Of a DNA stretch of 64,000 nucleotides, positions 2,256-44,444 are shown piece after piece. The stretch is taken from the IMG/VR virus record IMGVR_UViG_3300045988_151747; one strand, given 5' to 3'. The position numbers and the translations under genes were made by a program. The stretch's first letter is position 1. Each line of letters opens with the position of its first letter. This DNA is from a virus. The notes beneath the pieces are model-generated. The model saw only the letters and a list, made by a program, of their open reading frames with translations, was not told where the DNA came from and ran no database searches.

Positions 2256-3848
2256 CTAGAACTCTTCACTGCCTTGTTCTTCACCAAATTCATCCGGAGT
2301 TTCATCAACGTTTTCCTCATTACCCGTACTGGGGGCTTCTTCACCACCTGCGGAACTTAGTGCAGCTATGCGTGCCTGTAAAACTGCCTCCGCCACAGTA
2401 TCATCATCAATCTCATTAAGCAAATCCGGTATGTTTTGTTTTCCCATACGTTCCATGATTTCCCTACGTGAACCAAGTTTCATCTGTAACTCCATCTGTG
2501 CACGTTGCAGCTCATCCATCTTATCTTTGGGGAAACCGAAAGCAAACACAGGTTCAACCTGCACTTCGGAAAGGAAATCCGGACTTAATTTCTTTATCCG
2601 TTTAAACCGTTTGTTATCCGGGTCCTCTACCTCAAGAATACGGAAAATAATATTGTTCATCTGTGAAATACCCTCACCATAAGTCATTGCCTTTATGTTA
2701 GCCTGTTGTATAAGCGGATGGTAGGTAATCTGCAATGCCGCAGCAGAAGTATTGCTTATAGCCTGAATCTTACCAAGCGCATTTTCCGGAACATCTGACA
2801 ATTCGTGCATTGCGGTTTTCAAGTCTTTTGCAAAATTAACGGCAGCGGACAAATCAACATCCAATCCTAAATTAAATACGTTGGCTTCGGCAGGAAGTCC
2901 TGACCATATCTGACCTAAGCCTTTTTTCAATGACTTGGCGGAAGCACCTGTAATTACCGTGGTCGGAGTAACATGGTAGTCAATCACGGCTTTCAATTGT
3001 TGCATCACCTCATTATAAATCTTGTTTATCTTGAGAATATCATTGGCATCAGACTTTCCATAGTATCCGGAAGAATTGGGCTTGTTCTTTATATGCACTA
3101 CTGGAATGAACCCGTATTTGTTTTGAACCTCGGTATGTTTGTATTTGGCTACGTTACTTTCCTCAAGGTTAACGTCCACTTGATACCAAGTTTCAATAGT
3201 TTCCGCACTCATTTTAATAACATATAGTTTATAAGGCTGGTCGGGTCCGGATTGTAAAGGCTGACGTACCAAGAAAGATTTCACCTTATTATAATCGCCG
3301 TTATCAAATTCCACAAAACATTGTCGGCTGTCAAGAACGGAAACCTTGCAATATCTGTCCTGAACTTCCGGCATCCATTCACACATAAGCCAACAGTCGC
3401 CTGTGATACCACCCATTTGCAGCATCTCATAGGATAACTGTAACTTGTTTGACTTGCCCCAATGATACATCATAAGTTCCTCGGCAATCTTTTCCAGTTC
3501 ACGGTCAATCTGGTCGGAGTAGAAACTCTTCACATGGAAAGTAAAAGCCTCATTACCCAGCAAGAACATATTGACCTTATCAATAAACGCCTTTATATAA
3601 TTAAAGGAAAGCATCCCGTCATTGAAGTCCTTATAATGCATCCCGTCATAGAACTTCCAGTACAGGTAATATTTGGTGATTCTGTCAAGTTCCCATTTAT
3701 TGTCCTGCACTATGTTCTGCAATACAAAACTACGTAAAACGTTAGTTGCCTCACTAAGTGGACGACTGTCCACATTCCAATATTTTGAACCCGGATAACC
3801 GCTGTAGCTACCACCAGTAGGGTCCATACCTCCTACATTTATTCCCAT
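2256..3848 (-). CDS. portal protein
   Basis: 530-aa ORF whose start overlaps the TerL stop (3848). It has an acidic C-terminal tail. Size and position are typical of portal proteins. Confidence 0.8.
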   Translation of the reverse strand: MGINVGGMDPTGGSYSGYPGSKYWNVDSRPLSEATNVLRSFVLQNIVQDNKWELDRITKYYLYWKFYDGMHYKDFNDGMLSFNYIKAFIDKVNMFLLGNEAFTFHVKSFYSDQIDRELEKIAEELMMYHWGKSNKLQLSYEMLQMGGITGDCWLMCEWMPEVQDRYCKVSVLDSRQCFVEFDNGDYNKVKSFLVRQPLQSGPDQPYKLYVIKMSAETIETWYQVDVNLEESNVAKYKHTEVQNKYGFIPVVHIKNKPNSSGYYGKSDANDILKINKIYNEVMQQLKAVIDYHVTPTTVITGASAKSLKKGLGQIWSGLPAEANVFNLGLDVDLSAAVNFAKDLKTAMHELSDVPENALGKIQAISNTSAAALQITYHPLIQQANIKAMTYGEGISQMNNIIFRILEVEDPDNKRFKRIKKLSPDFLSEVQVEPVFAFGFPKDKMDELQRAQMELQMKLGSRREIMERMGKQNIPDLLNEIDDDTVAEAVLQARIAALSSAGGEEAPSTGNEENVDETPDEFGEEQGSEEF

Positions 3849-5509
3849 TAGTACGAATGTCTTTTTATTGCGTTAATTGTTTCAGTTATTCCGCCATACA
3901 GGGGGTTATCGGAAACTTCCATTTCTTCCTTAACCTCCACTTCCTCATTTGCAGCAAGACACATAAGTGCCGCACTGTCCACCATATCGTCAAAATACCC
4001 TTCCGTTTTTTCGCATACCATAAAGGAGCCGTTGAAATACTTCTGGCAGTTTTTCATCTGTTCCTCGAATTTGGAATACTCGGAAGTTCCTCTCACCACT
4101 TTATTAGCCGGAACTATAAGTCTGCGTGTCTTAATGTCAGAGATGAAATTATACCACATGTCTGATTTGCTCTGTGCGGTGAAAGTATATGGAGTTATAT
4201 CCACGTATTCGCCACAAGCATACATAAGCCGGTCAACAACGGGTTTTCCCACACCAGTATAATCCGCGTATATTTTGGCGATATTAAATTCGGCTATATA
4301 ATCAAGAAGTATATGATGCTGTTCCTCATAATCAGCACCACCAAGACACGCCCAGCATAATACCTGCTTATATGGATTCTTAAACGGTTCATCCAAGTCT
4401 TTCCACGACTTACCTATGGTAAGCACTGTTTCAGCAGGAGATTTACCGATATCCAAACCAGCCACAACAAAATCGGTAACATTGGGAACCTGAAATCCCA
4501 ACTTGCGGTTTATGATTCCATTAAATTCCTTATCCGTAAGAAGCATACCGCTTTCAATATCCCAAATAAGGGCGTAGGCAAGTTTGAACGCTTGTGATTC
4601 CTCACCCCAACGTTCACGCTTGCGATAAATATCAGCTTCGTAATTCAAATGGAATCTCTTTCCGTCCTTTTCATACTGTTCCCGTCTGCTGGCGATAATC
4701 TTCTTATAATCATATTCGTAATGATGCCGTACCCGTGGGTCAAGGCACTTCCTGTCCAGTTCACGGTTATGCTTTATTTCATAGTAGAAATGGTTCTTGG
4801 TCATACCTGTTGTACCTACCTTTATAAGAGTACCTGCGGTTGAGGAAAGCATAGGTTCGATAGACTTGCTGACAATAAGGTCGTCAACATCCTGCGCTTC
4901 TTCGACAATAACCAAATCATACGTCTTTGATTCAATCTTGGATTGCTTACTGGCAACCTGTCCGGCAAGAAAAGAACCGTTTGACAATTCAAGGCGTGCC
5001 ACACTTTCTAGCCATACGTCAATATCCGGGTCTGTAAGAACCATATCCGCATTTGCAGACCTCAGTCGGGTCATTGAACGTGAATAGGTAGTGACAACCT
5101 GGTCTGACTGGGGGGCGAAAAGCCCTACACGGAATCCGGTTTTGAACTGTTCCAAGTCGGGAATGATTGAAGCCAGTGCCGGAAGAATAACACATAACGT
5201 ATCAATGACAAAAGCCATAACCTCGGATTTACCCGACTGACGGGAAAGAAGCACTGTCTTTACGTCACCCGAAAAAGTTATCACGGAGTATATGATTCCG
5301 TATGCTATATCTTCCTGATAGGAATACAGGGAAATACCAGTAAGAACTTTGCCGAACTCCATAATCTTGGCGGTTACATCGTGGGCATCAAACTCCACGG
5401 TTTTACCTACCAGTTCCTCGGTATGTATTTCGGAAACGCTCTTACCAGTAGCCTCGAACACGTATCCCTGTTCCTTTAGTTCTTTTTTCTTCTTACTACG
5501 TACAGGCAT
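3848..5509 (-). CDS. terminase large subunit (T4 gp17-like)
   Basis: Walker A-like LLSRQSGKSE (compare T4 gp17 SRQLGKT), Walker B-like YDLVIVEEAQ, and a C-terminal RNase H-like nuclease region (VVAGLDIGK). 553 aa. Confidence 0.9.
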   Translation of the reverse strand: MPVRSKKKKELKEQGYVFEATGKSVSEIHTEELVGKTVEFDAHDVTAKIMEFGKVLTGISLYSYQEDIAYGIIYSVITFSGDVKTVLLSRQSGKSEVMAFVIDTLCVILPALASIIPDLEQFKTGFRVGLFAPQSDQVVTTYSRSMTRLRSANADMVLTDPDIDVWLESVARLELSNGSFLAGQVASKQSKIESKTYDLVIVEEAQDVDDLIVSKSIEPMLSSTAGTLIKVGTTGMTKNHFYYEIKHNRELDRKCLDPRVRHHYEYDYKKIIASRREQYEKDGKRFHLNYEADIYRKRERWGEESQAFKLAYALIWDIESGMLLTDKEFNGIINRKLGFQVPNVTDFVVAGLDIGKSPAETVLTIGKSWKDLDEPFKNPYKQVLCWACLGGADYEEQHHILLDYIAEFNIAKIYADYTGVGKPVVDRLMYACGEYVDITPYTFTAQSKSDMWYNFISDIKTRRLIVPANKVVRGTSEYSKFEEQMKNCQKYFNGSFMVCEKTEGYFDDMVDSAALMCLAANEEVEVKEEMEVSDNPLYGGITETINAIKRHSY

Positions 5510-5510
5510 A

Positions 5511-6038
5511 TTATTCCTCTCTTATATCATAAGACATATTACCTTTCATATTCCGCCATGTTTGGAGAAAAACGTTACACTCTTTAGAATAGGGCATGAA
5601 GCTGTCACTCTCCACCCAACAATTGGGAGTTTCATAAAGGCGTATCTTTTCAATCTGAATACCATGTTCCGAGGGAGTGAAGAACTTCCGGAATACGGTA
5701 AACAGTTCTCCGGCTATGTTTTCGGCAGACGGGTTTATGTCCGTTTTGATACCAAGCCCCATTTCATATACTTTCCAATTATTGGAACGGCACAATTTAA
5801 GAAGTTCCGTATCCATAGGATTAAGAATACAGGCATGGTCTAAAAACTCGTCAATGAAATCACCGCATACACGCTTCAATTCCTTGAAATCTATGGCATA
5901 GCCTATTTCCTTTACGTCCATATAGGAAAAAGTGGCTTCCACTTTAAAACGGTGTCCGTGAAGATTGAAACATTTCACCTTCTCGTTCATAACCCGATGT
6001 GCACTGTCAAACTCAAATACTCTAGTTACTGTTGCCAT
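5511..6038 (-). CDS. queD: 6-carboxy-5,6,7,8-tetrahydropterin synthase QueD
   Basis: N-terminal signature FEFDSAHRV...CFNLHGHRFKVEATF matches the QueD/PTPS family His/Cys motif. It has a C-terminal extension relative to the typical protein of about 120 aa. Confidence 0.88.
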   Translation of the reverse strand: MATVTRVFEFDSAHRVMNEKVKCFNLHGHRFKVEATFSYMDVKEIGYAIDFKELKRVCGDFIDEFLDHACILNPMDTELLKLCRSNNWKVYEMGLGIKTDINPSAENIAGELFTVFRKFFTPSEHGIQIEKIRLYETPNCWVESDSFMPYSKECNVFLQTWRNMKGNMSYDIREE

Positions 6039-10985: not shown

Positions 10986-10998
10986 AGACCGTTCGTTT

Positions 10999-11086
10999 TA
11001 TTTCGATACACAAAAGTAGTTATTTTTTTCGGAATAACAAAATAGTAAGATACTTTTTTCAGGGTAACTATATTAATATTTGTTAA
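10999..11086 (-). repeat. 88-bp direct repeat, copy A (promoter cassette)
   Basis: About 93 percent identical to 13685-13772. The first 46 nt are identical (TATTTCGATACACAAAAGTAGTTATTTTTTTCGGAATAACAAAATA). Confidence 0.9.
11011..11041 (-). promoter_or_regulatory. Bacteroidota-type promoter (TTTG-N19-TACTTTTG) inside repeat copy A
   Basis: Minus strand: TTTG at 11041-11038, TACTTTTG at 11018-11011. It ends 26 nt upstream of the ATG at 10985. Confidence 0.65.
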
Positions 11087-11331: not shown

Positions 11332-12105
11332 TCATTTTTGTTTTTCCGGAAATGCAACATCATACATATAATCCCAAAGGTACGGGTCGATATAGCTGGT
11401 CTTGCATACCGATGCCGTATTGTTAAGTTTCTCGGAAACATCGGTACACACCTGTTTCACTAAAGCATTGAAAGCCGATTTGGTTTTAACCTCCATCAGT
11501 TCATCCTTATGCCGGCTGAATGATTTCCACGCTTCGATGTTGGCTCTCATGGTACGCAAATCCTTAGGAGTGAAATTTGCTCCTATATGACGCTTGACAA
11601 ACTTGGTAAACTCATAGGCGGTTATCTCGAACAGCGTTTCCGGAGGCTGTGCGGTAAGTTTGATTTTCTCCACATGGGTCGCAAGGTCGCCGGTTACAAC
11701 AAAGCTGTTCTTTACGGAACGTTTCCCCAAGAAGTTCAGATAGACCTTACCACCTCTTAGTGTAACGTGTTCCGGAAGCAAGGTGGTAAGACCATAGGTC
11801 TGAACGAACTCCGGTTCACGTGTCTTGTCATAGGGGCTTACGGTTGTCATATATCCTTCCGCCGAAGATTCGTTCCCTATGCGGATGCCCGTATGGAGCA
11901 TCAGCCGGCACGCACACGCCAGCCGGGCGTTCAGTGTTACAAGTTCTCCCCTTTTTGCAATACGCCCCATCATGGAGTCAAGTCCGGTAAACAGTTTAGC
12001 CAGTTTCACCATCCTGTTGAACTTTCCCGAATAGCTTCCTTTCGGGGAGCGGAAAAACGTTATCATTTCACCGTCCACTTCAAACGTATATGTACCTATC
12101 CCCAT
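11332..12105 (-). CDS. DNA topoisomerase IB
   Basis: Family signatures read in order: HTGIRIGNE, YGLTTLLPEHVTLRGGKVYLNFLGKRSV, FTPKDLRTMRAN, and the catalytic-Tyr context TASVCKTSYIDP. An alternative longer start lies at 12213. Confidence 0.85.
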   Translation of the reverse strand: MGIGTYTFEVDGEMITFFRSPKGSYSGKFNRMVKLAKLFTGLDSMMGRIAKRGELVTLNARLACACRLMLHTGIRIGNESSAEGYMTTVSPYDKTREPEFVQTYGLTTLLPEHVTLRGGKVYLNFLGKRSVKNSFVVTGDLATHVEKIKLTAQPPETLFEITAYEFTKFVKRHIGANFTPKDLRTMRANIEAWKSFSRHKDELMEVKTKSAFNALVKQVCTDVSEKLNNTASVCKTSYIDPYLWDYMYDVAFPEKQK

Positions 12106-12281
12106 ACCACATAGTTTATAAAGTCGCTCAATGCAGTCATAAATTGCAGGAACATTCCCAGCAGCATAGCACCTATAACGAACAATACTGCATACCAAAA
12201 TCTCATCCACCATTTTCTGATAGGGGAAATAAGAACCTTGTTCCCGAATCTTCCGCTTATAAAGTCACAAATTGTATTCAT
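12096..12281 (-). CDS. small membrane protein
   Basis: 61-aa ORF with one strong hydrophobic helix (WYAVLFVIGAMLLGMFLQFMTAL). It fits the tight packing between 12287 and the topoisomerase ATG at 12105. Confidence 0.4.
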   Translation of the reverse strand: MNTICDFISGRFGNKVLISPIRKWWMRFWYAVLFVIGAMLLGMFLQFMTALSDFINYVVWG

Positions 12282-12286
12282 AATAA

Positions 12287-12598
12287 TTATCCGATTAAGT
12301 TTAAAATCATTTTCATTCCTTTCTCACCATAGTGTTCCGTAACAATGTCACGCATGGACTTTCCCTCTTCCTCGTAGTTACCGTACTTTTCATGCAGCCA
12401 GTCGTCAAAGGCGAATATGTCTATTATCACCAGTCTGAACACAACGCTCATAAGTTTGTCGTGAACCTTGGAAAACTTGATACCGAATATACCCTCGAAC
12501 TCATCAGCCACCTTCTGAATCTGGTAAAGCGGATATGGAGTGGGGGCTTCGCCCACCGCTCCGAACAATACTGCATACAATGAAGCATCCATAGTCAA
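12287..12598 (-). CDS. hypothetical protein
   Basis: 103-aa ORF in the same-strand array, with a 4-nt overlap onto its upstream neighbour. Confidence 0.5.
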   Translation of the reverse strand: MTMDASLYAVLFGAVGEAPTPYPLYQIQKVADEFEGIFGIKFSKVHDKLMSVVFRLVIIDIFAFDDWLHEKYGNYEEEGKSMRDIVTEHYGEKGMKMILNLIG

Positions 12599-12855
12599 TA
12601 AACGTTTTCGTCCAACAAGTCCTTTCCTATGAGTTCGTTCACCTGTGGGGCTGTCATTGTGTAGAACCTGCCCCTGCGTGACAAACCTTTTTCACTGTAA
12701 ACCTTCTGACCGTGGTAACGGTCCTGCGCCTGACTGAACAATATCTGATACACGCCTGTGTACGCCACGATGTAAAGTTTCTGGGAGTACATCATCTCCA
12801 CCTCTTCACGTAGCAGCTCCACACCACCTATCGTGCAATGAATATCCTTTCTCAT
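12595..12855 (-). CDS. hypothetical protein
   Basis: 86-aa ORF with 4-nt overlaps on both sides. Confidence 0.5.
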   Translation of the reverse strand: MRKDIHCTIGGVELLREEVEMMYSQKLYIVAYTGVYQILFSQAQDRYHGQKVYSEKGLSRRGRFYTMTAPQVNELIGKDLLDENVY

Positions 12856-13475
12856 TTTCTTGTCTTTTTATTGGTTTTTACTCTTTTCTGTTTCAACACC
12901 ATTTCCGATGTCTGCCATTTGTATGCGGCTTCCACCACGGCTTTAACATCACGTCCGTATTCGATGTCCTCGTCTTCCGTACCGTAAAAGAAATCCTTGT
13001 TGTCAACATCATACCCTACGTAACGGTAAGTGGGAAATTCCGAATCGGAAACGTACCTGTATATGCGGAAGCACTGCCATCTTCCATACCACTCGAACTT
13101 CACCTTCTGACGTTTCAACTCATCTTCCAGCTTTCTGACGCACGCCATGAAATGTTCCTCGGTGCGTGACAGCTTGAAACCGCTTTCGGACTTGTCTTTC
13201 AGATACTCCATATCGTAGGGTTCAAGAACATCCGGTTCCTCATCCACGGTTTCTTCCGGAACCACATTGCCCTTATTGTCGTACATTCTTTCGTCACGGA
13301 CAATCTTTACCGAATGGTCGGGCGTACATGCCCACTGGTAGATTTTCAAAAGTGTTTCCTCATTCAGTGTCCGGAGTGTGTAAACGGAAATGGTAGGGCT
13401 TGCCTTATGAATCTCGAATATCAAATCGTCTACTGTCAATGCTTTTGTTCTCATAGTCGTAATCAATTGGTTCAT
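12852..13475 (-). CDS. hypothetical protein
   Basis: 207-aa ORF. No motif recognised. Confidence 0.55.
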   Translation of the reverse strand: MNQLITTMRTKALTVDDLIFEIHKASPTISVYTLRTLNEETLLKIYQWACTPDHSVKIVRDERMYDNKGNVVPEETVDEEPDVLEPYDMEYLKDKSESGFKLSRTEEHFMACVRKLEDELKRQKVKFEWYGRWQCFRIYRYVSDSEFPTYRYVGYDVDNKDFFYGTEDEDIEYGRDVKAVVEAAYKWQTSEMVLKQKRVKTNKKTRK

Positions 13476-13649: not shown

Positions 13650-13684
13650 CTTTCTTGTCTTTTAGTGGTGAATACTACGTTTAT

Positions 13685-13772
13685 TATTTCGATACACAAA
13701 AGTAGTTATTTTTTTCGGAATAACAAAATAATAAGATATTTTTTTCAAAGTAACTATATTAATATTTGTTAA
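13685..13772 (-). repeat. 88-bp direct repeat, copy B (promoter cassette)
   Basis: See copy A at 10999-11086. Confidence 0.9.
13697..13727 (-). promoter_or_regulatory. Bacteroidota-type promoter (TTTG-N19-TACTTTTG) inside repeat copy B
   Basis: Minus strand: TTTG at 13727-13724, TACTTTTG at 13704-13697. Confidence 0.65.
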
Positions 13773-13802
13773 GTACGTACGGTTACGTTGGTAGGCACCG
13801 TT

Positions 13803-14099
13803 TTACAGGTTAACAAGCAAATCATAATCCTCACGTGACAATATCCGGATATGCTCGGTAACGAAAGTTTCAAACAGTTTGACTCTTGCAAGGTTAGAAC
13901 AATCGTATTTCATTACCCATCTCATAAACGGAACCATCTCGTCCGTACTATCCTTATACATGACTTTGGTATTTTGCCATGCTTCCGGACCTATCGTTTC
14001 CAGTAATGTTATGACAAACATCTTTTCGTTTGCAGCCTCGCACTCGTTTTTCATATACAATCCGCTGACACGGTTGTAAATCGTATATCTGAAATTCAT
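13803..14099 (-). CDS. hypothetical protein (tandem paralogue 2 of 2)
   Basis: 98 aa. The C-terminus HIRILSREDYDLLVNL resembles the neighbour's ELHLLSDESFNIIRNL, and both are the same length. Confidence 0.5.
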   Translation of the reverse strand: MNFRYTIYNRVSGLYMKNECEAANEKMFVITLLETIGPEAWQNTKVMYKDSTDEMVPFMRWVMKYDCSNLARVKLFETFVTEHIRILSREDYDLLVNL

Positions 14100-14392
14100 A
14101 GGTTTCTTATGATATTAAATGATTCGTCTGAAAGCAGATGCAGCTCCCCCTTAACGAACATGGTAAACAATCGGTCCTTTAACTGATCCCTCAAAGGAGT
14201 TGAAGCTGCATAGCCTTTGAAAGATATGCCGTTTATCTCTAATGTTTCCAGACATTCAATGGGAACATTGTCAATGACAAGGGCAAACGCCTCTGTTATT
14301 GACGGCGCAAGGACTTCATTACACGTTCCGAATGCCGTAATATCATCCGGATATTCATAAGGGTTGTAATAGCTAAAAGTAAACTTTTTCAT
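14096..14392 (-). CDS. hypothetical protein (tandem paralogue 1 of 2)
   Basis: 98 aa. It is the first gene downstream of the long non-coding region. Confidence 0.5.
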   Translation of the reverse strand: MKKFTFSYYNPYEYPDDITAFGTCNEVLAPSITEAFALVIDNVPIECLETLEINGISFKGYAASTPLRDQLKDRLFTMFVKGELHLLSDESFNIIRNL

Positions 14393-14568
14393 AAGCAGTA
14401 TGTTTCTAATTTAAATTCATTCCGTTTTCCAGTGACAGGAACGTCCGGACAATAATATTAAATATCATATTATATATTCCTTATAGTTATAGTAGTTATT
14501 AATATTAATTGCCACGAAGTTCCCTGCACCTTTATCGTATTGTCAATATTTAGTTCTTTTCATCAAAG

Positions 14569-14599
14569 TAAATATACGAAATATTTCACACCCGTCAAA
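14569..14599 (-). promoter_or_regulatory. candidate promoter (TTTG-N19-TATATTTA)
   Basis: Minus strand: TTTG at 14599-14596 and a 7/8 -7 box at 14576-14569. It lies about 180 nt upstream of the ATG at 14392. Confidence 0.35.
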
Positions 14600-14923
14600 A
14601 CTCCGCACACTCACCCGTTCGCACACGAAGTATTTATTTTCAAATATGCAAATGCCACACAAAACCCGCAATTTTCACACAAGCCACACCACTCACACCG
14701 TTCCACACACAATCCATACATCATCCACACGCCACACAGTTACTTTTATTTTTATCAAAGTAAAAAATACAGGTTCCAAAATCTACTGTCTAACCTACGT
14801 CAACCACCCGACCCGTTTCCCGTACCCGATTCCATTTAAGGGTGGGGGCTGTCTATTCGAGCTATCATAGGTGAAATGCCACACATCCCTCTGGTTATTT
14901 CCATCCAAATATCTGCCACACAC
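14587..14923 (-). repeat. one-orientation CACAC / GCCACAC motif array
   Basis: At least 12 CACAC pentamers, all on the plus strand. They include five GCCACAC copies at 14654, 14683, 14731, 14878 and 14915, plus ACTCAC(C/A)CCGTTC at about 14608 and 14691. Confidence 0.85.
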
Positions 14924-14990
14924 ATTGCTTTCAAAGTAACAACCCTATCTATGTTCTATCCGTGATAAAAGTAACTGTTCTTTTCTGAAA

Positions 14991-15184
14991 AATAACCGCC
15001 GGAAAAGTTAGTCTATATAATTAGAAAAACAAAAACGCCGGAAAGTTATTCTGTATAATATATAGTAGCCAATTAAAAACGCCCGTAATTAAATTAATCT
15101 AGTTACCTATATCAAAGTAAGCCTCGTTTTTCCCTATGCTGGAGTAATAAAAACGCCTATATGGACAATCTTCCTGTATAAAAT
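14991..15184 (-). repeat. direct repeats AA(A/T)AAC(C)GCCGGAAA(A)GTTA..TCT.TATAAT
   Basis: Units at 14991-15022 and 15031-15062 are about 80 percent identical. AAAAACGCC recurs at 15031, 15075 and 15149, and the third unit ends in CTGTATAA. Confidence 0.75.
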
Positions 15185-15587
15185 AAGTAGTTTCCTAGGA
15201 AATTCCGGTATAACATGGATAATCTTATTATCTATATACGTAAAATAACACGCCAATTAGCCAAATTACAGCGATTTTCTACCCTGCTGCCGCTAATTAC
15301 ACAGCAAAAAGCTGTCTTTTACCTTTCCCGCTTAGATATAGCTGTGGTTGAATAATGTCTAAGGTACTTATAAGTAGTATATCTATTGTTATTATTAGTA
15401 TTATATAGATATATTAATAGTAAAACATTAACCCGCGAATGGGTTTCCGGAGATTCCGCGCATTTTCTCCCATGTAGTTACATATAAAACCGCAGTTTTA
15501 CCCCCTTATTTGCTTGGTTAGATAATCTACCCTACTATAATTACTCCTTATTACCACTACCTAATTACCTGACAGCCAAAATAAAAA

Positions 15588-15628
15588 CCCGTTTATGCGG
15601 AAATTTTTATTTTCACGCACAAAACGGG
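15588..15628 (-). terminator. rho-independent terminator (strong)
   Basis: CCCGTTT-A-TGCG / CGCA-CA-AAACGGG stem of 11 bp with a 16-nt loop, followed on the minus strand by TTTTTATTTTGG. Confidence 0.6.
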
Positions 15629-15694
15629 CTAATCAATTCGAGTCTTTTAAATACAAATTTGTGGTTGAGTAAGGTTTTTACTCAAAGTAAAATG

Positions 15695-15724
15695 AAAGGA
15701 GCCACTTTCACAAGCAACTCCTTT
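15695..15724 (-). terminator. hairpin, possible terminator
   Basis: AAAGGAG / CTCCTTT 7-bp stem with a 16-nt loop, followed by CATTTTAC on the minus strand. Confidence 0.35.
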
Positions 15725-15750
15725 CTGTGTATAAACTAAATAAACTAATC

Positions 15751-15768
15751 TTCCCAACGCTTTGGGAA
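15751..15768 (-). terminator. hairpin downstream of dps, possible terminator
   Basis: TTCCCAA / TTGGGAA 7-bp stem with a 4-nt loop, 44 nt after the dps stop. The trailing tract is only moderately U-rich. Confidence 0.4.
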
Positions 15769-15811
15769 AGGCAAATGTAAATAAAGCTAATTATAAACAC
15801 CGACTAAAAGA

Positions 15812-16267
15812 CTATATTTTATCTTGAGTCCATGCGGTAAGGAACCAGCTTTTCAATTCATTCCACTTACTTAGCTGTGTCATTAAATCCGCAGTGACAT
15901 AATCGTTCTGTTCATTTGCGTCCGAATAAATTTCGTTCTGCAAGTTTGTAAGTTGTATAAGACTTATCAAAGTAGCCTCAATCATAGCACGTGGTTCAGT
16001 AGCATCTTGTGAGCCTTCAACTTCTGAAAGTGAAGCGGCTTCGGGCAGCGTAAGATGGATGGGATAGCCTAACTGCCTGATTCGTTCCGCAACACTATCA
16101 GAATTTGATACGGCTTCATTATACAACTCCTCTAACAATTTATGCAATTCATTAAAACTTGGTCCGACAATATTCCAGTGGAATACATGGGTCTGTTGGT
16201 AGAACACTGTCCATGATGCAAGAAGTGCCCTCATACGTTCTACGGTATCTCTATTAATATTAGCCAT
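15812..16267 (-). CDS. dps: Dps-family ferritin-like DNA-binding protein
   Basis: Signature FHWNIVGPSFNELHKLLEELYNEAVSNSDSVAERIRQLG carries the Dps ferroxidase-site His/His/Glu/Asp pattern. 151 aa. Confidence 0.85.
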   Translation of the reverse strand: MANINRDTVERMRALLASWTVFYQQTHVFHWNIVGPSFNELHKLLEELYNEAVSNSDSVAERIRQLGYPIHLTLPEAASLSEVEGSQDATEPRAMIEATLISLIQLTNLQNEIYSDANEQNDYVTADLMTQLSKWNELKSWFLTAWTQDKI

Positions 16268-16323: not shown

Positions 16324-16800
16324 CTAAGGAGTCTTATTATTGACAGATTTCCCACAGATTTTCAGTATTCTAGCCTTACGGGCATATTCATCACACCATC
16401 TGTTAACAGCATACCTCGGATGTTTTATATCCATGTGCCCCCGTATGTTCTTCGCATAATAAGAGGGAAAATTCCTATCAAGAATACTCTGCATTTCAAT
16501 ACGCAATCTTTCAATTGCTTCATTTTTATACGTATGTTTTTTCCTGTTTACTATATCCCTGCAACATTTGTTATCCACATTGATAACAAGAATCTCAACG
16601 GGGATTTTGTTTTTCATCACCCAGTGTATCCCGTTCATTACAGACCATATCTCGGCAATATTGGAATCCCACGTGCGATTCTTGAACGGCGCCCATATTT
16701 TTACAGTGACTAAATCACAATTAATCCAGAGCGCATAACCGGCTTCTCCAGTAGCAGGATTAACAGAAGCGTCCGAATTGATTGTGCAATAACCTTTCAT
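16324..16800 (-). CDS. RNase H-like protein
   Basis: Candidate DEDD residues in order: NSDAS, IAEIWSV, NVDNK, WCDEYARKA. 158 aa. Confidence 0.55.
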   Translation of the reverse strand: MKGYCTINSDASVNPATGEAGYALWINCDLVTVKIWAPFKNRTWDSNIAEIWSVMNGIHWVMKNKIPVEILVINVDNKCCRDIVNRKKHTYKNEAIERLRIEMQSILDRNFPSYYAKNIRGHMDIKHPRYAVNRWCDEYARKARILKICGKSVNNKTP

Positions 16801-18896: not shown

Positions 18897-19568
18897 TTAT
18901 CCAATCGCTATCATTTGGTAAAATTCCTGTTTCAGTTCGCCTTCAAAGAAATCTCCCCCCAAACGACAGGTAACAGTATCAGAATTTATATCCTCAATTC
19001 CTCTCAGTTTCACACAAGTGTGTTCCGCTTTTATGAGAACGGCTACATTGTCCGTATCAAGTATATAACTCAAAGCATAATAAATTTGTTCGCAAAGTCT
19101 TTCCTGAACTTGCGGTCTACGACAGAAAAATTCCACAATACGGTTGATTTTGGAAAGCCCGATAACAGTATTGTTAGGAATATAGGCAATAAAAGCCTCA
19201 CCCATCATAGGAATGAAATGATGCTCGCAAGTCGAGTGAACCTTGATGTGTCGTTCAAGAAGCATACTACTGTAATGCATCTTATTCTGTATAGTGGTTA
19301 TCTTAGGGAAATTATGGTAATCAAGCCCCCAAAATATTTCATCCACATACATACGGGCAATTCTTTTCGGAGTATCCGAAAGCGAATCATCATCCATATC
19401 CAAACCCAATGAGGTCATTATATTATGAACGGATTCCTCAATTACTTTTTTCTTGGAATCGGTATCAAGGGAAGCACTTATTTCCAAAGGGGTTTCAACA
19501 CCATTATTCATAAGTTCCTTATGGACTTTAATCCCAAGTTCATAGTCAGTCTTATTTTTATCCAACAT
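18897..19568 (-). CDS. folE: GTP cyclohydrolase I (FolE)
   Basis: Signature STCEHHFIPMMGEAFIAYIPNNTVIGLSKINRIVEFFCRRPQVQERL closely follows the GCH-I consensus CEHH..P..G.A.VAYIP...V.GLSK..R.V....RR.QVQERL. Confidence 0.92.
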   Translation of the reverse strand: MLDKNKTDYELGIKVHKELMNNGVETPLEISASLDTDSKKKVIEESVHNIMTSLGLDMDDDSLSDTPKRIARMYVDEIFWGLDYHNFPKITTIQNKMHYSSMLLERHIKVHSTCEHHFIPMMGEAFIAYIPNNTVIGLSKINRIVEFFCRRPQVQERLCEQIYYALSYILDTDNVAVLIKAEHTCVKLRGIEDINSDTVTCRLGGDFFEGELKQEFYQMIAIG

Positions 19569-32219: not shown

Positions 32220-32296
32220 TGGTGATTCCAAAGTGGCTCGAACACTTGACCCACGCCTTAAAAGGGCGTTGCTCTATCCAACTGAGCTATGGAACC
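32220..32296 (-). tRNA. tRNA-Lys (anticodon UUU) with encoded CCA
   Basis: The manual cloverleaf folds cleanly. Acceptor GGTTCCA / TGGAATC; D arm GCTC-AGTTGGATA-GAGC; anticodon arm ACGCC-CTTTTAA-GGCGT; T arm AAGTG-TTCGAGC-CACTT; ending ACCA. Confidence 0.9.
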
Positions 32297-36894: not shown

Positions 36895-37155
36895 TTATTT
36901 TAAAATTTCATCAATAGATGATAAAATACTCTCCAGTCTTTCCAACTGCTCAGAGTATTTCATAAGAAGATTTTCTTCTCTTTCCGTAGCCTCCCCTCCA
37001 TTGTGAATATCATTATACTTTTCGTATTTTGATTTTACACTCTTATATGCTTTCTGAAAGAACGGAAGCAATATCTTACATTCCTCTTTGGTCATACAGA
37101 CCGTTATCTCGTATGGAGATGAATACGATTTTCTAGTGCCATCTATGTAACTCAT
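36895..37155 (-). CDS. hypothetical protein
   Basis: 86-aa ORF. Confidence 0.5.
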   Translation of the reverse strand: MSYIDGTRKSYSSPYEITVCMTKEECKILLPFFQKAYKSVKSKYEKYNDIHNGGEATEREENLLMKYSEQLERLESILSSIDEILK

Positions 37156-37373
37156 TTCTGTTCGTTATTGAAGTCATTAATATAACTACGCCCAGCATCA
37201 GTTGGACGATAAACAACATCACCAAATGGTCCAGCCGATTTCGTCAACAAACCGTTTTTTACCATTTCTTCTAAATCATCAGAGGGTTTACTATAACCAC
37301 CCCATCCTTTTTTGCAGATATTCCTTAAATGAATAAGCTGCATCTTACTTAATTCTATATTCATTTGGTTCAT
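37152..37373 (-). CDS. hypothetical protein
   Basis: 73-aa ORF. Confidence 0.5.
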   Translation of the reverse strand: MNQMNIELSKMQLIHLRNICKKGWGGYSKPSDDLEEMVKNGLLTKSAGPFGDVVYRPTDAGRSYINDFNNEQK

Positions 37374-37597
37374 ATTTTATCTGTTTTGAATTTCTTGTTT
37401 ATTTCTTTTTCTGCCGCCTTGGCTCCTTTCTTGAAACCCTCTACAAAGCTGTCAAAACAAATTCTGTTTATTTCTGGAGTACAGCTTCTCAAAAGTGGGC
37501 AAATCGAACATCTTTGGCTAAGTCCGGCTGACCTCTTGGCTATTTTCGTTACGTTTTTCATAGGCTTTACACTCTTCACAATGCAGTTTGTAAGCAT
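37370..37597 (-). CDS. hypothetical Cys-containing protein
   Basis: The first ATG is at 37597; the ORF-track start at 37603 is TTG. It overlaps the upstream ORF by about 80 nt, so the boundaries are uncertain. Confidence 0.35.
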   Translation of the reverse strand: MLTNCIVKSVKPMKNVTKIAKRSAGLSQRCSICPLLRSCTPEINRICFDSFVEGFKKGAKAAEKEINKKFKTDKI

Positions 37598-37754
37598 GGG
37601 CAAACATTCCTAGAGTAACAGGTTCAAAGTTAAAATCCGCCTGTTTCCCTTCTATAACAACAGAAACACACAATTGTCCATCGCAAAAGTCAATATACGC
37701 TTCACCACCTCCATTTCCTTTAATGGAAAGTGTTTGTGTCTGTACGCTATTCAT
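37518..37754 (-). CDS. hypothetical protein
   Basis: 78-aa ORF. Confidence 0.4.
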   Translation of the reverse strand: MNSVQTQTLSIKGNGGGEAYIDFCDGQLCVSVVIEGKQADFNFEPVTLGMFAHAYKLHCEECKAYEKRNENSQEVSRT

Positions 37755-38025
37755 TATTCACCTCCTTTAATCTTTTAATTATGGCATTAGCACAATTAAC
37801 CGAATATTTAGCAGCTACATCAGAACAAACACCAATATCGTTTGCTATAACCACATTAACGATTTCTTTTGCCAATTCGTATCTACGCTGTTCCCAGTCG
37901 ATAGTTTCACTAAAGAAATCAAGTTCTGATACTTTGAAATATTTATCATTCACCAATGCAGTGCCATCATCATATAAATCCTTGATATTTACAATTTCTC
38001 CTGTTAATTTTACTCTTGCTTTCAT
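37747..38025 (-). CDS. hypothetical protein
   Basis: 92-aa ORF. Confidence 0.5.
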   Translation of the reverse strand: MKARVKLTGEIVNIKDLYDDGTALVNDKYFKVSELDFFSETIDWEQRRYELAKEIVNVVIANDIGVCSDVAAKYSVNCANAIIKRLKEVNNE

Positions 38026-38044
38026 TGTTTAATCATTTATTATA

Positions 38045-38209
38045 TTACCACCAAAACATTCCACCCCAAAATAATATAAAAATAATACCTGCTACAAGTT
38101 TGACAACAGCACCCAAACCAAAAGCACCGTCCTTACCATTAGATGCCCAAAACAACCAAAGTATTAAAACTATAATTGCCACTACATTATACCATGCTAT
38201 TGTAATCAT
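38045..38209 (-). CDS. small membrane protein (54 aa)
   Basis: Hand-translated MITIAWYNVVAIIVLILWLFWASNGKDGAFGLGAVVKLVAGIIFILFWGGMFWW. ATGA start/stop overlap with the upstream gene. Two hydrophobic helices. Confidence 0.5.
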   Translation of the reverse strand: MITIAWYNVVAIIVLILWLFWASNGKDGAFGLGAVVKLVAGIIFILFWGGMFWW

Positions 38210-38592
38210 AATTGTTCCTCCTTTGTTTTAAAGTGTTCAATCAGTTCGTTTACGGAAGCCTTGTGTATTTTTCTACCTTCATTACATACTTCATCACCAC
38301 ATTTAAACCATAAATCCCCATCGGTAAACCATTGGTACTTGTCTGTATCATCCCTTAATGCAGCGATAGCCAGGAAAAGTTCCTCGTTAGCTCCGCAATC
38401 AACAAGGACATCTATTTCTTTAAGAGCATTTATATCATCATCGCGCCATGAATAAACCGAAATAATTCCAAACATACAAGTACATAGATTATGCCAACCT
38501 AAATATGGATTACAATAATAGCCAAGTTCTTTTAATCTATTTCTAATATTATCAGTATTTTTGCGTATGAAACACGGTGTTGTAAATCCCAT
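38206..38592 (-). CDS. hypothetical protein
   Basis: 128-aa ORF. Confidence 0.5.
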   Translation of the reverse strand: MGFTTPCFIRKNTDNIRNRLKELGYYCNPYLGWHNLCTCMFGIISVYSWRDDDINALKEIDVLVDCGANEELFLAIAALRDDTDKYQWFTDGDLWFKCGDEVCNEGRKIHKASVNELIEHFKTKEEQL

Positions 38593-38594
38593 AG

Positions 38595-38885
38595 TTATTC
38601 CTCCTTAATTATTCGCTCATTTATAATAAACTCTCCATGAATATCAATGGGAAGCATATTGGAAACACTCGCATGATAAGTCTTACCGTCCATTGCCTTA
38701 CATAGTGGATGTATTTCTTTAGGCATAGGGGCAGGACATTTTTTACAATGTCTTATCATTTCAAAATGTCTATTTTCCTTATTGCCACAACATTCACAAT
38801 GAATTGGATAGTAAAAATAAGTACGTTCCAACTGGGTTTCTTTTCCACATATTTCGCATCTGCCCCATTCTATTGAATTACACAT
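38595..38885 (-). CDS. zinc-ribbon protein
   Basis: CEICGKE...CECCGN...CKKCPAP CxxC pairs. Confidence 0.5.
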   Translation of the reverse strand: MCNSIEWGRCEICGKETQLERTYFYYPIHCECCGNKENRHFEMIRHCKKCPAPMPKEIHPLCKAMDGKTYHASVSNMLPIDIHGEFIINERIIKEE

Positions 38886-38921
38886 GATTGTTCCTCCTTC
38901 TCTGTTTTAATATCTGTTACT

Positions 38922-39131
38922 TTACTCATAGCGTATTATCTTTTCTTTAACTCCAGTAGTGCTACCACAGGAAGGGCATGGGATAAATATTACATTATAC
39001 CCTTCTCTTTGGTCAAAAAACTCACTGTGTATATCCGATTTCTCAAACTCAAATTCACATCCACATCTGTCACAACGCCGGAAGTAAATCGGATTTTTCT
39101 TATTAGCTTCTTTAATAATCTTTATTGCCAT
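38922..39131 (-). CDS. zinc-ribbon protein
   Basis: CDRCGC...CPSCGS CxxC pairs. 69 aa. Confidence 0.5.
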   Translation of the reverse strand: MAIKIIKEANKKNPIYFRRCDRCGCEFEFEKSDIHSEFFDQREGYNVIFIPCPSCGSTTGVKEKIIRYE

Positions 39132-39133
39132 AG

Positions 39134-39337
39134 CTAATCTTCTTTATATTTTGATTCATCAATTACAACACTCCTAATATTTCTTTCTCCAAATGTTTTA
39201 TAAGTCAACGTTCCTCCATAAAACTTTATGGTATCTCCCTTAACAGTAATAACCATTCCACCTTTTAATCTATGTTCCATATCACCTTTACAAGATAACA
39301 TCGTGGCTGTCATAAGTATAATTAATATAAACCTCAT
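39134..39337 (-). CDS. small lipoprotein
   Basis: Signal plus lipobox-like MRFILIILMTATMLSCKGD. Confidence 0.5.
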   Translation of the reverse strand: MRFILIILMTATMLSCKGDMEHRLKGGMVITVKGDTIKFYGGTLTYKTFGERNIRSVVIDESKYKED

Positions 39338-39339
39338 AA

Positions 39340-39735
39340 TTAATCTCCTTTCTCTTTAATCCGTTCAAGTACATCTCTGTTGGCTTCTAGTATATCATCA
39401 AAAGACGGGATGGGCATCCAAGCTACCGTATCATAATACACTGTATCATAATACACTAATGCTTTTGCTTCCCATTCTCCATCTATATAATTGTTTACAC
39501 ATATAAAATAATTATTAGAGCGCTTCACCTTACAGAGTGTAAATACCATATCTTCATTTTCCGGCAACCGTTCATTAACGCTTATCCAAGGAGATTGCTT
39601 TGACTGCCATTCGGCACCTTGAACGAAATTCATCTCTCCAAACTTTGCCAAATCTTTACCAAACAAAGTTCTGTCAACTGTCCTGTGATTAAACAGGATA
39701 TTTTCTCTTGCTGCTTCTTCTACTGTCTGTTTCAT
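39340..39735 (-). CDS. DUF551-like protein
   Basis: WISVNERLPENEDMVFTL matches the characteristic DUF551 W.SV..RLPE motif. Confidence 0.5.
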   Translation of the reverse strand: MKQTVEEAARENILFNHRTVDRTLFGKDLAKFGEMNFVQGAEWQSKQSPWISVNERLPENEDMVFTLCKVKRSNNYFICVNNYIDGEWEAKALVYYDTVYYDTVAWMPIPSFDDILEANRDVLERIKEKGD

Positions 39736-39736
39736 A

Positions 39737-39919
39737 TCAAAATACTATTTTAAAATCTTTTCCTTTTAACGTAGGAAGCCTGTCAGTGACAAACTTCTCC
39801 AGTTCCTCTTCGTCTATCGGGAACAACGGGCAATATTGGTATCTGAACGTATGTACAAACCGCCCGTCAAGCATTACATCAAAAACCAGTGTTTTCATAT
39901 CTTGTTCACTTTTGTCCAT
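39737..39919 (-). CDS. hypothetical protein
   Basis: 60-aa ORF. Confidence 0.4.
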   Translation of the reverse strand: MDKSEQDMKTLVFDVMLDGRFVHTFRYQYCPLFPIDEEELEKFVTDRLPTLKGKDFKIVF

Positions 39920-40086
39920 AAACTAAACTCGGTATAGAGATATTTCCATTTATCCCTGTAACGGTATTTGTCATTCGAGTATTGGCAACGGACACAATAA
40001 TCCGTCTTATATAAAACCTCATAGATTACTCCCCTGTGTTCAAACAGTTCGTGACTATCAAGGGTTCCTACTTCTACCTTCTTCAT
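39895..40086 (-). CDS. hypothetical protein
   Basis: 63-aa ORF. Confidence 0.4.
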   Translation of the reverse strand: MKKVEVGTLDSHELFEHRGVIYEVLYKTDYCVRCQYSNDKYRYRDKWKYLYTEFSLWTKVNKI

Positions 40087-40115
40087 AACTGTAAGAATTC
40101 AATTATTCATATAAT

Positions 40116-40535
40116 CTATACTACCAATATTTCACGGTAAGAAATACAAATAAGATTGGAAACCTCATTCTCATCGTGACACCATGCAAGAAACCATTTC
40201 TTACCTTTAGTAGTATTAAACTGCCCTTTCCACATTTTACCGTTATACTTACCCGTAGGCTCGGAGTTTGTATAATCCGGCAATAAGTCAAAGTCCAGTT
40301 TACTCATAAGCACATAATCATCGTCCAAAACAAAACCGCTAGGGTCTGGTTGTACCCAATGTTTTCCAAGTGAATTTGTCATTGGTGGAATAGTATTCTT
40401 GTTCAAAGAAACATTATCAGTGTTTTCCTTAAACTGTGCACCCGCAATAAATCCTTTATAGTAAGCAGTAAAAGCATTTCCGTCATTTTGCGATTCTGCA
40501 AACTTATAGGCGGCTTTTTCAATTTCTTTATTCAT
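40116..40535 (-). CDS. hypothetical protein
   Basis: 139-aa ORF. Confidence 0.5.
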   Translation of the reverse strand: MNKEIEKAAYKFAESQNDGNAFTAYYKGFIAGAQFKENTDNVSLNKNTIPPMTNSLGKHWVQPDPSGFVLDDDYVLMSKLDFDLLPDYTNSEPTGKYNGKMWKGQFNTTKGKKWFLAWCHDENEVSNLICISYREILVV

Positions 40536-40774
40536 CAGTCAAGCATTTTATAGTGTCTTTTAAAAGTATCCCAAGGAGTGTAGTCTACATAAGGAGTACC
40601 ATCCCATGTATTTTGCCATGTATATTTGGCATAAAATATGGAACTCCATTTAAAGAACTTGAATTGCCATATAAACGAAATGATATTGAACGCCAAAAAT
40701 ACTGCAATCTCGAACAGTGTATATGCTATGCAAAGCAAACACCATATAATCAAATGTATTCTTAAATATTTCAT
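40535..40774 (-). CDS. small membrane protein
   Basis: Two TM helices (LIIWCLLCIAYTLFEIAVFLAFNIISFIW). Confidence 0.5.
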   Translation of the reverse strand: MKYLRIHLIIWCLLCIAYTLFEIAVFLAFNIISFIWQFKFFKWSSIFYAKYTWQNTWDGTPYVDYTPWDTFKRHYKMLD

Positions 40775-43904: not shown

Positions 43905-44444
43905 TTATAGTTTAATAATTTTCCATTTCATTCCATAAGATAAGTTACCCTTATGTGCGGCTTGATAAACAGCACCTTGGGCATACCCATGAGATTTTAA
44001 GTCTTTATGAAGAAACTCTCCAAAAATTTTACCCTCTTTATAAGCCAAATATTTAAATTTGGTTTTTGTTTTGGAATGGTTTCTATTTCGTTTTGATGCT
44101 CCAAGACCATACATTAAATTATAGGAAGCAGTACACCACTCCAAATTATCCACATGATTATTCAGTTTATTTTCGTCCTTATGATTTACCTGTGGAAGTC
44201 TTAAGGGGTTCGGAATAAAAGCCTTAGCAACTAAACGGTGTACTAAATAATTTTTTCGTTTCCCTTCCTCATTGTATAAGTCAATAACGGCATACCCTCT
44301 GATAACTTCTGGGGACCTTATTGTTTCCTTTATGTTACGAGTTTTCCCATTACGCATAGTAATGGTTCTCTCAAGAGATTTTATCCTACCATGAGAAGAT
44401 ATAGCATAGTCATACCCTCTGATTCGTTTCCATATCTCTGTCAT
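43905..44444 (-). CDS. HNH homing endonuclease (NUMOD4-like N-terminus)
   Basis: WKRIRGYDYAISSHGRIKS at the N-terminus and VNHKDENKLNNHVDNLEW as the HNH core. It is free-standing between the recombinase and polymerase genes. Confidence 0.8.
   Translation of the reverse strand: MTEIWKRIRGYDYAISSHGRIKSLERTITMRNGKTRNIKETIRSPEVIRGYAVIDLYNEEGKRKNYLVHRLVAKAFIPNPLRLPQVNHKDENKLNNHVDNLEWCTASYNLMYGLGASKRNRNHSKTKTKFKYLAYKEGKIFGEFLHKDLKSHGYAQGAVYQAAHKGNLSYGMKWKIIKL

Follow-up and report, generated by a model that had tools for sequence, protein, structure and literature searches.

A conserved non-coding control region and candidate replication origin in Flandersviridae-like Bacteroides phages

The gene-free region downstream of dps

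The window analysed here is a 64,000-nucleotide (nt) stretch of viral DNA (IMG/VR record IMGVR_UViG_3300045988_151747) from a Flandersviridae-like Bacteroides myophage of the gut. The large terminase (TerL) of the window shares 73% identity with its counterpart in BS162P1, a cultured Bacteroides phage of 88.9 kb whose host is B. salyersiae. All substantial open reading frames (ORFs) of the window lie on the minus strand, and features are described in the direction of transcription, from high to low coordinates. Directly after dps, which encodes a Dps/ferritin-like protein, lies a region (14393–15811) with terminators, one-strand repeats, palindromes and two AT-rich blocks (Table 1). The original prediction had noticed it as a 1.4-kb ORF-free region bounded by terminators. 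It was made from the sequence alone, and family conservation, an insertion hotspot, the sites with the word TTACTTTGA and a related chromosomal island were beyond its sight. The analysis showed it to be a genuine non-coding region with a conserved architecture, and it may contain a phage replication origin.

The coordinates of the region proved right. It was the sole long gap without a plausible gene in the 64 kb, and the only stretch of more than 400 nt in which the minus strand has no ATG ORF of 45 amino acids (aa) or more, the next largest such stretches measuring 221–399 nt. The ORFs inside it were at most 99 aa long, had TTG or GTG starts, or were antisense, and its small ORFs were disrupted by indels of 29, 8 and 1 nt in relatives. 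Other intergenic gaps, given earlier as 0–170 nt, actually reach about 300 nt. The bounding by terminators held at the dps side, where all three predicted hairpins were found, the last of them a terminator; the downstream boundary is no terminator, and the non-coding unit continues beyond it. Across the family this unit extends to a promoter at about 13727–13697. The two 98-aa genes of the window (14392–13803) are a lineage-specific, promoter-less insert, and other genes stand in their place in clade 2.

An assembly artefact was ruled out, as independent gut-metagenome contigs of 84–113 kb pass straight through the region. Ten long contigs span it. The BS162P1 record and four IMG/VR contigs break within it, at break points that differ from one another; the break in the BS162P1 record reflects a circle opened by the assembler and not a terminus, because its ends overlap by 55 nt.

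Hidden coding sequences were rejected as well. A 39-aa Cys-rich peptide in the GT array (14730–14611) was interrupted by the same three indels and lay in differing frames in relatives. The ATG of CCCTTAAATGG was discounted as a start codon: the ORF that it would begin has just 11 aa, and relatives L015 and L017 have ATA in its place. Decayed genes were excluded with a tblastn search of 2,072 ORFs from relatives, which gave trivial hits only; the best distant hit (E 0.004) is noise at that number of queries.

Repeats and duplex stability

For comparison, loci were taken from IMG/VR, gut metagenomes and GenBank, giving seven lineages with Dps proteins 50–100% identical to that of the window. The predicted CACAC array was confirmed: the minus strand had 14 copies of GTGTG where about 0.9 were expected, and the plus strand had none (P = 1e-12). 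The predicted repeat units also stood, as three minus-strand copies of GGCG followed by five A/T bases (P = 6e-4), and the word TAATT[AGT][CG][CG] was found seven times (P = 5e-8). In all seven lineages the CG-box and TAATT words were enriched 4–20-fold and almost exclusively sense, forming the three or more clustered direct repeats by which iterons are recognised. The sense/antisense counts of CG pentamers per lineage were 7/0, 7/0, 6/1, 7/1, 5/3, 10/1 and 8/0, compared with 55/36 in 48 kb of coding background. Regular tandem repeats, such as a type III toxin–antitoxin RNA array (units of about 34–37 nt) or clustered regularly interspaced short palindromic repeats (CRISPR), were not present in the region, and the spacings were irregular. 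Helical phasing of the GTGTG sites was considered and dropped, since no clear period was seen and the array is absent from lineages L051 and L053.

Both predicted AT-rich blocks were recovered. Among 60-nt stretches of the 64 kb, AT block 2 had the least stable duplex (free energy dG −55.7, rank 1) and AT block 1 the second least stable (−56.1, rank 2), at a mean of −77.7 and a standard deviation of 4.7. The blocks thus lie about 4.6 standard deviations from mean stability, adjacent to the repeats in the manner of a DNA unwinding element (DUE). At 14809–14660 the sense-strand GC skew was 0.68 and the G fraction 0.35, the top of all 150-nt segments. Such a G-rich, C-poor stretch follows block E in six of the seven lineages; L051 was without skew.

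The word TTACTTTGA occurred six times against 1.27 expected, always on the minus strand at 13745–15690 and nowhere else in the 64 kb, and none of 100 shuffles reached six. Five copies lie inside the region and one at 13745–13753. Most begin small palindromes, and multiple copies are confined to two clades. In relatives, TTACTTTGA lies 14 nt ahead of the ORFs of inserted cassettes, and it also precedes the promoter-less 98-aa genes. The sites are probably operators or non-canonical promoters.

Conservation among related phages

An ORF-free region of 1.3–2.1 kb was found directly after dps in seven of seven lineages, including the cultured BS162P1, and was missing beside dps in a more distant fragment (Dps 43% identical). 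The comparison with related phages, which the original prediction had called for, revealed short conserved blocks in a fixed order, while the primary sequence around them diverges fast. The order was block A; B; C; D with AT block 1; the CG-box/TAATT zone; E; the G-rich, C-poor stretch; AT block 2; and a canonical Bacteroides promoter. In L025, BS162P1 and L053 this closing promoter, with an inverted repeat in its spacer, ends the non-coding unit.

The block A hairpin follows dps in seven lineages with its GUGA loop kept, differing (covarying) stem sequences and dG values from −15.7 to −20.3. The palindrome predicted around TCCGGA was confirmed as the GCGG/TCCGGA element of block D, and TTCGCGG or TTTGCGG boxes stand ahead of the AT block in all lineages. 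Block E was kept in all lineages, as two tandem units in L053 and L090; the conserved blocks of the window are single-copy. The AT block beside TGTCCGG was also seen in BS162P1 and L053.

A perfect 14-nt inverted repeat (14978–14965 / 14749–14736) flanks a 215-nt unit with block E. As a test for an inverton, the orientation of this unit was compared in about 25 related sequences; it was the same in all of them, and no recombinase gene was found nearby in the phage. A sigma-54 promoter in block C was rejected on reading the sequences, in which the GG-to-GC spacing shifts by 1 nt between lineages. A G-quadruplex in block E was likewise discarded, as its four G3 runs are not kept in L008, L009 or clade 2.

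The repeat zone differed even between near-identical genomes, one difference being the loss of 85 nt between direct repeats and another the triplication of a 22-nt unit. A further point of variation lies at 15678–15685, immediately after TTACTTTGA site 1, where relatives carry cassettes of 0.7–2.8 kb made up of small ORFs (L008 6587–7797; L015 6585–9206) and the window has none. One cassette ORF was related to crAss001_48, one matched DUF551, and the rest were without match. The region is also an operon boundary and an insertion and recombination hotspot.

Table 1. Features of the region and recognised genes of the window, in order of decreasing coordinates
Feature	Position	Strand	Remarks
258-aa protein	51674–52450		directly upstream of DnaC-like loader, then DnaB
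DnaC-like loader	51044–51664	minus	
DnaB	49761–51041	minus	
DnaG primase	47700–48665	minus	
PolA-type polymerase	44441–46300	minus	
GTP cyclohydrolase I	18897–19568		
RNase H-like protein	16324–16800	minus	two genes upstream of the ORF-free region
Dps/ferritin-like protein	15812–16267	minus	
Smaller hairpin	15750–15769	minus	beside block A
Block A, intrinsic terminator of the dps operon	15694–15725	minus	long stem, GUGA (GNRA) tetraloop, U run 15686–15693
TTACTTTGA site 1	15682–15690	minus	begins palindrome TTGAGTAA-AAACC-TTACTCAA, to 15660
Block B, conserved AT-rich box	15625–15662	minus	CC.CAAATTTGTATTTAAAAGAC.CGAATT; aligned in 6 phage lineages
Second strong terminator	15578–15627	minus	hairpin 15627–15588 (dG −19.8), then T run
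Block C	15483–15519	minus	AACCAAGCAAATAAGGGGGTAAAACTGCGGTTTTATA (GGGGTAAAAnTGCGGTTTTATA in family view); conserved across lineages
Block D	15426–15464	minus	paired GCGG boxes, imperfect palindrome around TCCGGA, ending TTAATG; adjoins AT block 1
AT/TA-rich block 1, DUE-like	15365–15424		position conserved in all lineages
Iteron zone	14990–15299	minus	TAATT(A/G/T)SS words at 15299, 15268, 15259, 15091, 15075
Iteron zone units GGCGTTTTT / CCGGCGG	15157, 15083, 15039, 15001	minus	
TTACTTTGA site 2	15112–15120	minus	inside iteron zone
TTACTTTGA site 3	14931–14939	minus	precedes block E
Block E	14764–14862	minus	AGCTCGAA (GAGCTGAA in family view), C run, invariant CCCTTAAATG (14842–14833)
Block E, 3' part		minus	G-cluster stretch (GGGTA), TAGGTT...AACCTG stem, T run
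TTACTTTGA site 4	14755–14763	minus	inside palindrome TTACTTT-N9-AAAGTAA (14763–14738)
GTGTG(G) array	in 14590–14763	minus	after TTACTTTGA site 4
TTACTTTGA site 5	14563–14571	minus	
AT/TA-rich block 2	14450–14509		beside conserved TGTCCGGAC box (14451–14443); family-wide next to TGTCCGGA
TTACTTTGA site 6	13745–13753	minus	outside 14393–15811
Bacteroides promoter TTTG-N-TACTTTTG	within 13684–13772	minus	GTTATT...AATAAC inverted repeat in spacer; outside 14393–15811
Type IB topoisomerase	11332–12213	minus	
QueD-like protein	5511–6038		directly upstream of terL
Portal and large terminase	2256–5509	minus	terL itself 3848–5509
Baseplate gene, helicases, UvsX-like recombinase	recognised in window	minus	

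A related island in Bacteroides chromosomes

When one genome of each bacterial species was scanned for the pattern, the module turned up in a bacterial chromosome. In Bacteroides sp. KG123 (L109, NZ_CP171223.1), about 1.1 kb was 75–85% identical to one phage lineage, and this long version includes an AT block and the CG boxes/iterons. Downstream of it lies a gene of a chromosomal family.

The island that carries the module measures about 7 kb, is tRNA-linked and was found in several Bacteroides contigs (L110 6100–13320, L111–L114, and L109). It begins with two tyrosine integrase genes, an HTH_17 (excisionase-like) gene and a terminator, followed by about 400 nt of non-coding DNA with blocks B and C, a GGCTAAG box, the core of block E (CCCCCATTAAATG) and a TTATC..GATAAC palindrome. 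A promoter and a structured leader come next, then genes for proteins of 243 aa, 162/207 aa and about 300 aa, DUF6642 and a tRNA. The island flanks vary between contigs and are rich in defence genes. Block B was visible by eye in L109, L110 and L113, and block C was 84–89% identical over 37–50 nt between phage lineages and island. The common, short version of the island is without iterons and AT blocks.

The structure model of the 243-aa island protein was of moderate to good confidence, with a mean predicted local distance difference test (pLDDT) score of 79.8 and a predicted template modelling (pTM) score of 0.82. Structural matches were weak (best E 0.012), the best-ranked and most frequent being PD-(D/E)xK nucleases, and the invariant D95 and E113-x-K115 fit the PD-(D/E)xK motif. 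The island cargo thus has the look of a PD-(D/E)xK nuclease cassette.

Blocks B, C and E could form a cis module common to phages and island, in which case the island might be a satellite that borrows a phage signal or a defence island that senses or titrates the phage. We consider this unlikely, and the evidence for it, shared sequence blocks and gene context, is thin. KG123 would then be a recombinant of phage-type and island modules. To our knowledge, no such satellite or phage-sensing island has been described in Bacteroidota. A virion-packaged satellite was rejected, as no relative of the 243-aa gene was found in IMG/VR viral contigs. It is also unlikely that the shared blocks are the arm of an att site, because the island ends at the tRNA gene 3.3 kb away.

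Promoters and RNA structure

The canonical Bacteroides promoter pattern (TTTG-N17-23-TAnnTTTG) had 14 matches in the window, all of them on the minus strand and most of them a short way upstream of genes. This layout fits transcription of a unidirectionally read genome by host RNA polymerase. None of the matches lay inside 14393–15811, the nearest being at 16322, ahead of dps, and at 13727. The idea that the region is a long leader of the downstream operon was weakened by this absence and by the conserved terminator that ends the upstream operon. The 89-nt promoter module at 13684–13772 (TTTG-GTTATTCCGAAAAAAATAAC-TACTTTTG) is duplicated at 10998–11086 with 95.5% identity, and relatives have the duplication too. 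The inverted repeat in its spacer is a candidate operator common to two transcription units.

A search against Rfam, even with E up to 10, gave no family in the region: the best scores were 13–20 bits, compared with gathering scores of 42–115, and a hit to GibS (20 bits, gathering score 115) was rejected. Only the tRNA at 32220–32296 reached the Rfam threshold in the window. The single-sequence fold of block E was no better than that of shuffled sequences (z = +0.69). In alifold analyses of 8–14 distinct relatives against column shuffles, only the 15627–15588 terminator scored (z = −4.0, sense strand only), and z was above 0 for block E and the GT array. Some very low alifold z values in the AT-rich part are not meaningful, because the energies there are near zero.

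Candidate replication origin

Among the functions proposed in the original prediction, a replication origin fits the evidence best: one-strand repeats in seven lineages, extreme AT blocks, gain and loss of repeat units, and a phage that encodes a DnaC-like loader and DnaB. We tentatively interpret the region as a composite cis-acting DNA control region whose core would be a phage replication origin of the iteron-plus-DUE type, an interpretation that we hold to be possible but short of probable. The ORF-free region alone in the 64 kb joins clustered one-strand repeats with extreme unwinding potential. It is the only such place because no repeat cluster lies in or near the gene of the 258-aa protein, the putative initiator. 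Candidate iterons near that gene, four copies of TTCCTCGGYARGA at 52486–52805, were a coding artefact. This word was found 18 times on the plus strand of the window against 3.3 expected (at 52486–52805 and at 14 other sites), and it reflects peptide or codon bias and not a DNA signal, because in frame it encodes (P/V/L)(T/A)EE.

In the mechanism we propose, transcription of the replication and nucleotide-metabolism operon is stopped at the entrance of the region by two conserved, functional-looking terminators. A phage initiator would bind the one-strand direct repeats (CGGCG plus an A/T run, TAATTASCG-type words, GCGG boxes), the best candidate being the 258-aa protein encoded upstream of the DnaC-like loader and DnaB. 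Its binding would melt one or both of the adjacent TA-rich blocks, the DnaC-like loader would then load DnaB, and DnaG and PolA would take over. The gene order of 258-aa protein, DnaC-like loader and DnaB suggests initiator-dependent loading. In a speculative variant, a local transcript over the G-rich, C-poor stretch upstream of AT block 2 might form an R-loop, which the RNase H-like protein might process into a primer for PolA, as in ColE1 or T4 oriF. The island, with its conserved blocks and in KG123 also the AT block and iterons, is what would be expected of a cis site used by phage machinery.

Several observations weigh against an origin. The repeats are short, degenerate and irregularly spaced, and neither the GT array nor the TTACTTTGA sites are kept in all lineages. 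Many phage origins lie in or beside the initiator gene, whereas 36 kb separate the region from the genes of the putative initiator, the loader and the helicase, and the 258-aa protein had no family or structure match. No GC-skew switch was seen, a measure that is uninformative here because all genes lie on one strand. DnaA boxes were not enriched (0–2 per region with at most one mismatch, near the background rate); host DnaA boxes occur in many, but not all, iteron-type origins. The search for an origin covered the 64-kb window, and about 25 kb of the genome lie outside it. Moreover, blocks B, C and E, whose conservation is the strongest, persist in the short island version without iterons and AT blocks, so these three may have another role than DNA unwinding or the binding of an initiator.

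Alternative explanations

The repeats and palindromes might instead form a transcriptional switch, in which operators and non-canonical promoters time the downstream module (small genes, the 207-aa family, topoisomerase IB, then terminase and structural genes) and the inserted cassettes. Its elements would be TTACTTT-N-AAAGTAA, TTATC..GATAA, the GCGG boxes and the TAATT words, with the AT blocks as UP-like or bending elements. The region is bounded exactly by a conserved terminator on one side and the next operon on the other, its closing promoter has a spacer inverted repeat in every lineage, and the blocks of the island stand directly upstream of the promoter of the nuclease-like cassette. 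The six TTACTTTGA sites, found only here, mostly begin palindromes and precede the cassette ORFs and the 98-aa genes, but their multiplicity is limited to two clades, and no canonical −33/−7 promoter lies inside. We regard a switch as rather unlikely, since an operator region of 1.4–2 kb would be very long, blocks B, C and E occur just once and not at other operons, and the extreme TA-rich blocks and one-strand CG-box arrays are left unexplained. The strict strand asymmetry of all motifs would also suit one or more genes for non-coding RNA, which might give short transcripts that start at TTACTTTGA sites and stop at the terminators at 15588 and 14770, or else a GU-rich RNA transcribed from the array. 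Such an RNA could act in host takeover or anti-defence, and the blocks common to phage and island would mean that the island copy encodes a homologous RNA. Promoter-like sites are followed by a hairpin and U run at 90–170 nt, and each of two block E stems showed one possible compensatory change. However, this layout of transcription units is kept in two clades only, a candidate pairing of C run and G run fails in L051 and L053, and the searches described above found no Rfam family and conserved structure in the terminators only, with unfavourable z for block E and the GT array. We consider non-coding RNA, a function that the original prediction had allowed for, decidedly unlikely.

A cos or pac site for packaging would place the cleavage site at the G/C-rich, partly palindromic element beside TTAAATG in block E, with the repeats bound by terminase, and the island copy would let a helper phage package the island. 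Ahead of TTAAATG, the G/C run often forms a palindrome (GGGTACCC, GGGGCCCC) in otherwise AT-rich DNA, repeated short motifs lie downstream, and the blocks are shared with an integrase/excisionase island. Satellites that carry cos sites of their helper are known, and the island recalls them; its marker gene is, however, absent from IMG/VR viral contigs. The breaks in the BS162P1 record and four IMG/VR contigs would suit genome ends, but they are scattered, ten long contigs cross the region and the BS162P1 ends overlap, so this indirect evidence from contigs gives no fixed termini. The published circular assemblies and even read coverage also speak against fixed genome ends and against a long terminal repeat. 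Unrelated genes fill the 8.9 kb from the region downstream to terL, and the gene directly upstream of terL encodes a QueD-like protein. The packaging alternative of the original prediction thus gained nothing, and we assign it a low probability. Finally, the region might be the largely functionless debris of an insertion hotspot, made of leftover promoters, terminators and junctions of past cassettes. This would agree with the presence or absence of 0.7–2.8 kb cassettes at 15678–15685, including the window without a cassette after TTACTTTGA site 1, the replacement of the 98-aa genes in clade 2 and the indels of repeat units. The block order is nevertheless the same in lineages whose Dps proteins are just 50–58% identical, and in the chromosomal island; protein remnants were not detectable, and the length is steady at 1.3–2.1 kb in tightly packed genomes. 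Debris is in our view very unlikely. A small probability, roughly that given to packaging, is left for something other than these five readings.

Comparison with known systems

Iteron-type origins, such as lambda ori, P1 oriR and SPP1 oriL/oriR, have several short direct repeats of one orientation next to an AT-rich unwinding element. The region likewise has one-orientation repeats beside an AT-rich block, in a phage with an initiator-like gene, a loader and a DnaB-type helicase. SPP1 oriR lies in non-coding DNA far from the initiator gene, as the region does from its putative one. Unlike those origins, the region has shorter, more degenerate and irregular repeats and two AT blocks about 900 bp apart, is 3–10 times longer and contains the extra conserved blocks B, C and E.

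Transcript-primed origins include ColE1, with RNA II, RNase H and Pol I, and T4 oriF/oriG, with a promoter and a downstream DUE. The region resembles them in its promoter-like site, G-rich, C-poor non-template stretch and following AT-rich block, and genes for a PolA-type polymerase and an RNase H-like protein are present in the phage. It differs in that its G content of 0.30–0.37 is below the usual thresholds for R-loops, L051 lacks the skew and the promoter is only putative. The phage also has the DnaC/DnaB route, which is normally paired with initiator-driven melting.

Staphylococcus aureus pathogenicity islands (SaPI) and phage-inducible chromosomal islands (PICI) have origins, and satellites have cis sites, with which the Bacteroides island can be compared; cloned phage origins can also confer resistance, an effect known from lactococcal phages as phage-encoded resistance (Per). 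Here, a small integrase/excisionase island beside a tRNA gene shares blocks with the single-copy non-coding region of a lytic phage, and one island strain also has the AT block and iterons. In contrast to SaPI and PICI, the Bacteroides island is without recognisable genes for replication or capsid redirection, its cargo is PD-(D/E)xK nuclease-like, it was not found among viral contigs, and its common short version has no iterons or AT blocks.

In T7-like phages, the left-end control region is a non-coding stretch of about 0.9 kb that holds repeat arrays and a cluster of early promoters. The window is similar in the long gene-free start of a transcription unit, the one-direction genome, the repeat arrays and the promoter-like sites. 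It differs in showing no sign of a physical genome end at the region and no canonical host promoters inside it.

Genome context

The window agrees with the published candidate family "Flandersviridae" in genome size, gene content and colinearity. The paper that defines the family reports circular assemblies with even read coverage, and the non-coding region goes unmentioned in it. A nucleotide search with the window gave no match among deposited phages (INPHARED), and no literature on BS162P1 was found.

In all lineages compared (window 11332–13475, L034 1088–2591, L051 5773–6911), the first conserved genes past the non-coding region encode the 207-aa family, which has no known domain, and then topoisomerase IB. 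Homologues found for the 207-aa family (12852–13475 in the window) were only 80–99% identical, giving an alignment too shallow for useful modelling of its function. Poxvirus-type topoisomerase IB cuts at (C/T)CCTT, and block E has CCCTT-AAATG as its invariant core, with the phage topoisomerase IB gene as the second conserved gene downstream. The second-copy units and the island read CCATT instead, and a link between enzyme and block was set aside for that reason. A MerR-like protein of 99 aa is encoded at 52685–52984.

No small terminase subunit was recognised beside terL. TerL has 553 aa in the window, whereas its BS162P1 homologue is annotated as a 907-aa ORF (OP172706.1 9334–12057) and aligns in two pieces; the homologue in MT835482.1 likewise aligns in two pieces. 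These alignments suggest that terL of BS162P1 and MT835482.1 carries an insertion, possibly an intein or homing element. The QueD-like protein and GTP cyclohydrolase I hint at a 7-deazaguanine DNA modification pathway. The sole tRNA gene, a minus-strand tRNA-Lys(UUU) at 32220–32296, sits in one of the few other gaps of more than 200 nt. The stretch 36900–40800 had a GC content of 0.34–0.36, strong strand skew and many very short ORFs, and lies within the block of about 20 kb of unknown genes noted for the family.

Implications

Flandersviridae-like phages are among the commonest of the human gut, and almost nothing is known of their replication. The region, as their probable origin or control region, is a concrete target for the study and engineering of these phages, and the hotspot at the TTACTTTGA sites marks where they swap accessory genes. 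The island with its nuclease-like cargo suggests a possible phage–host or phage–satellite interaction in Bacteroides. This link is more surprising than the candidate origin, and could point to a satellite or a phage-sensing defence island.

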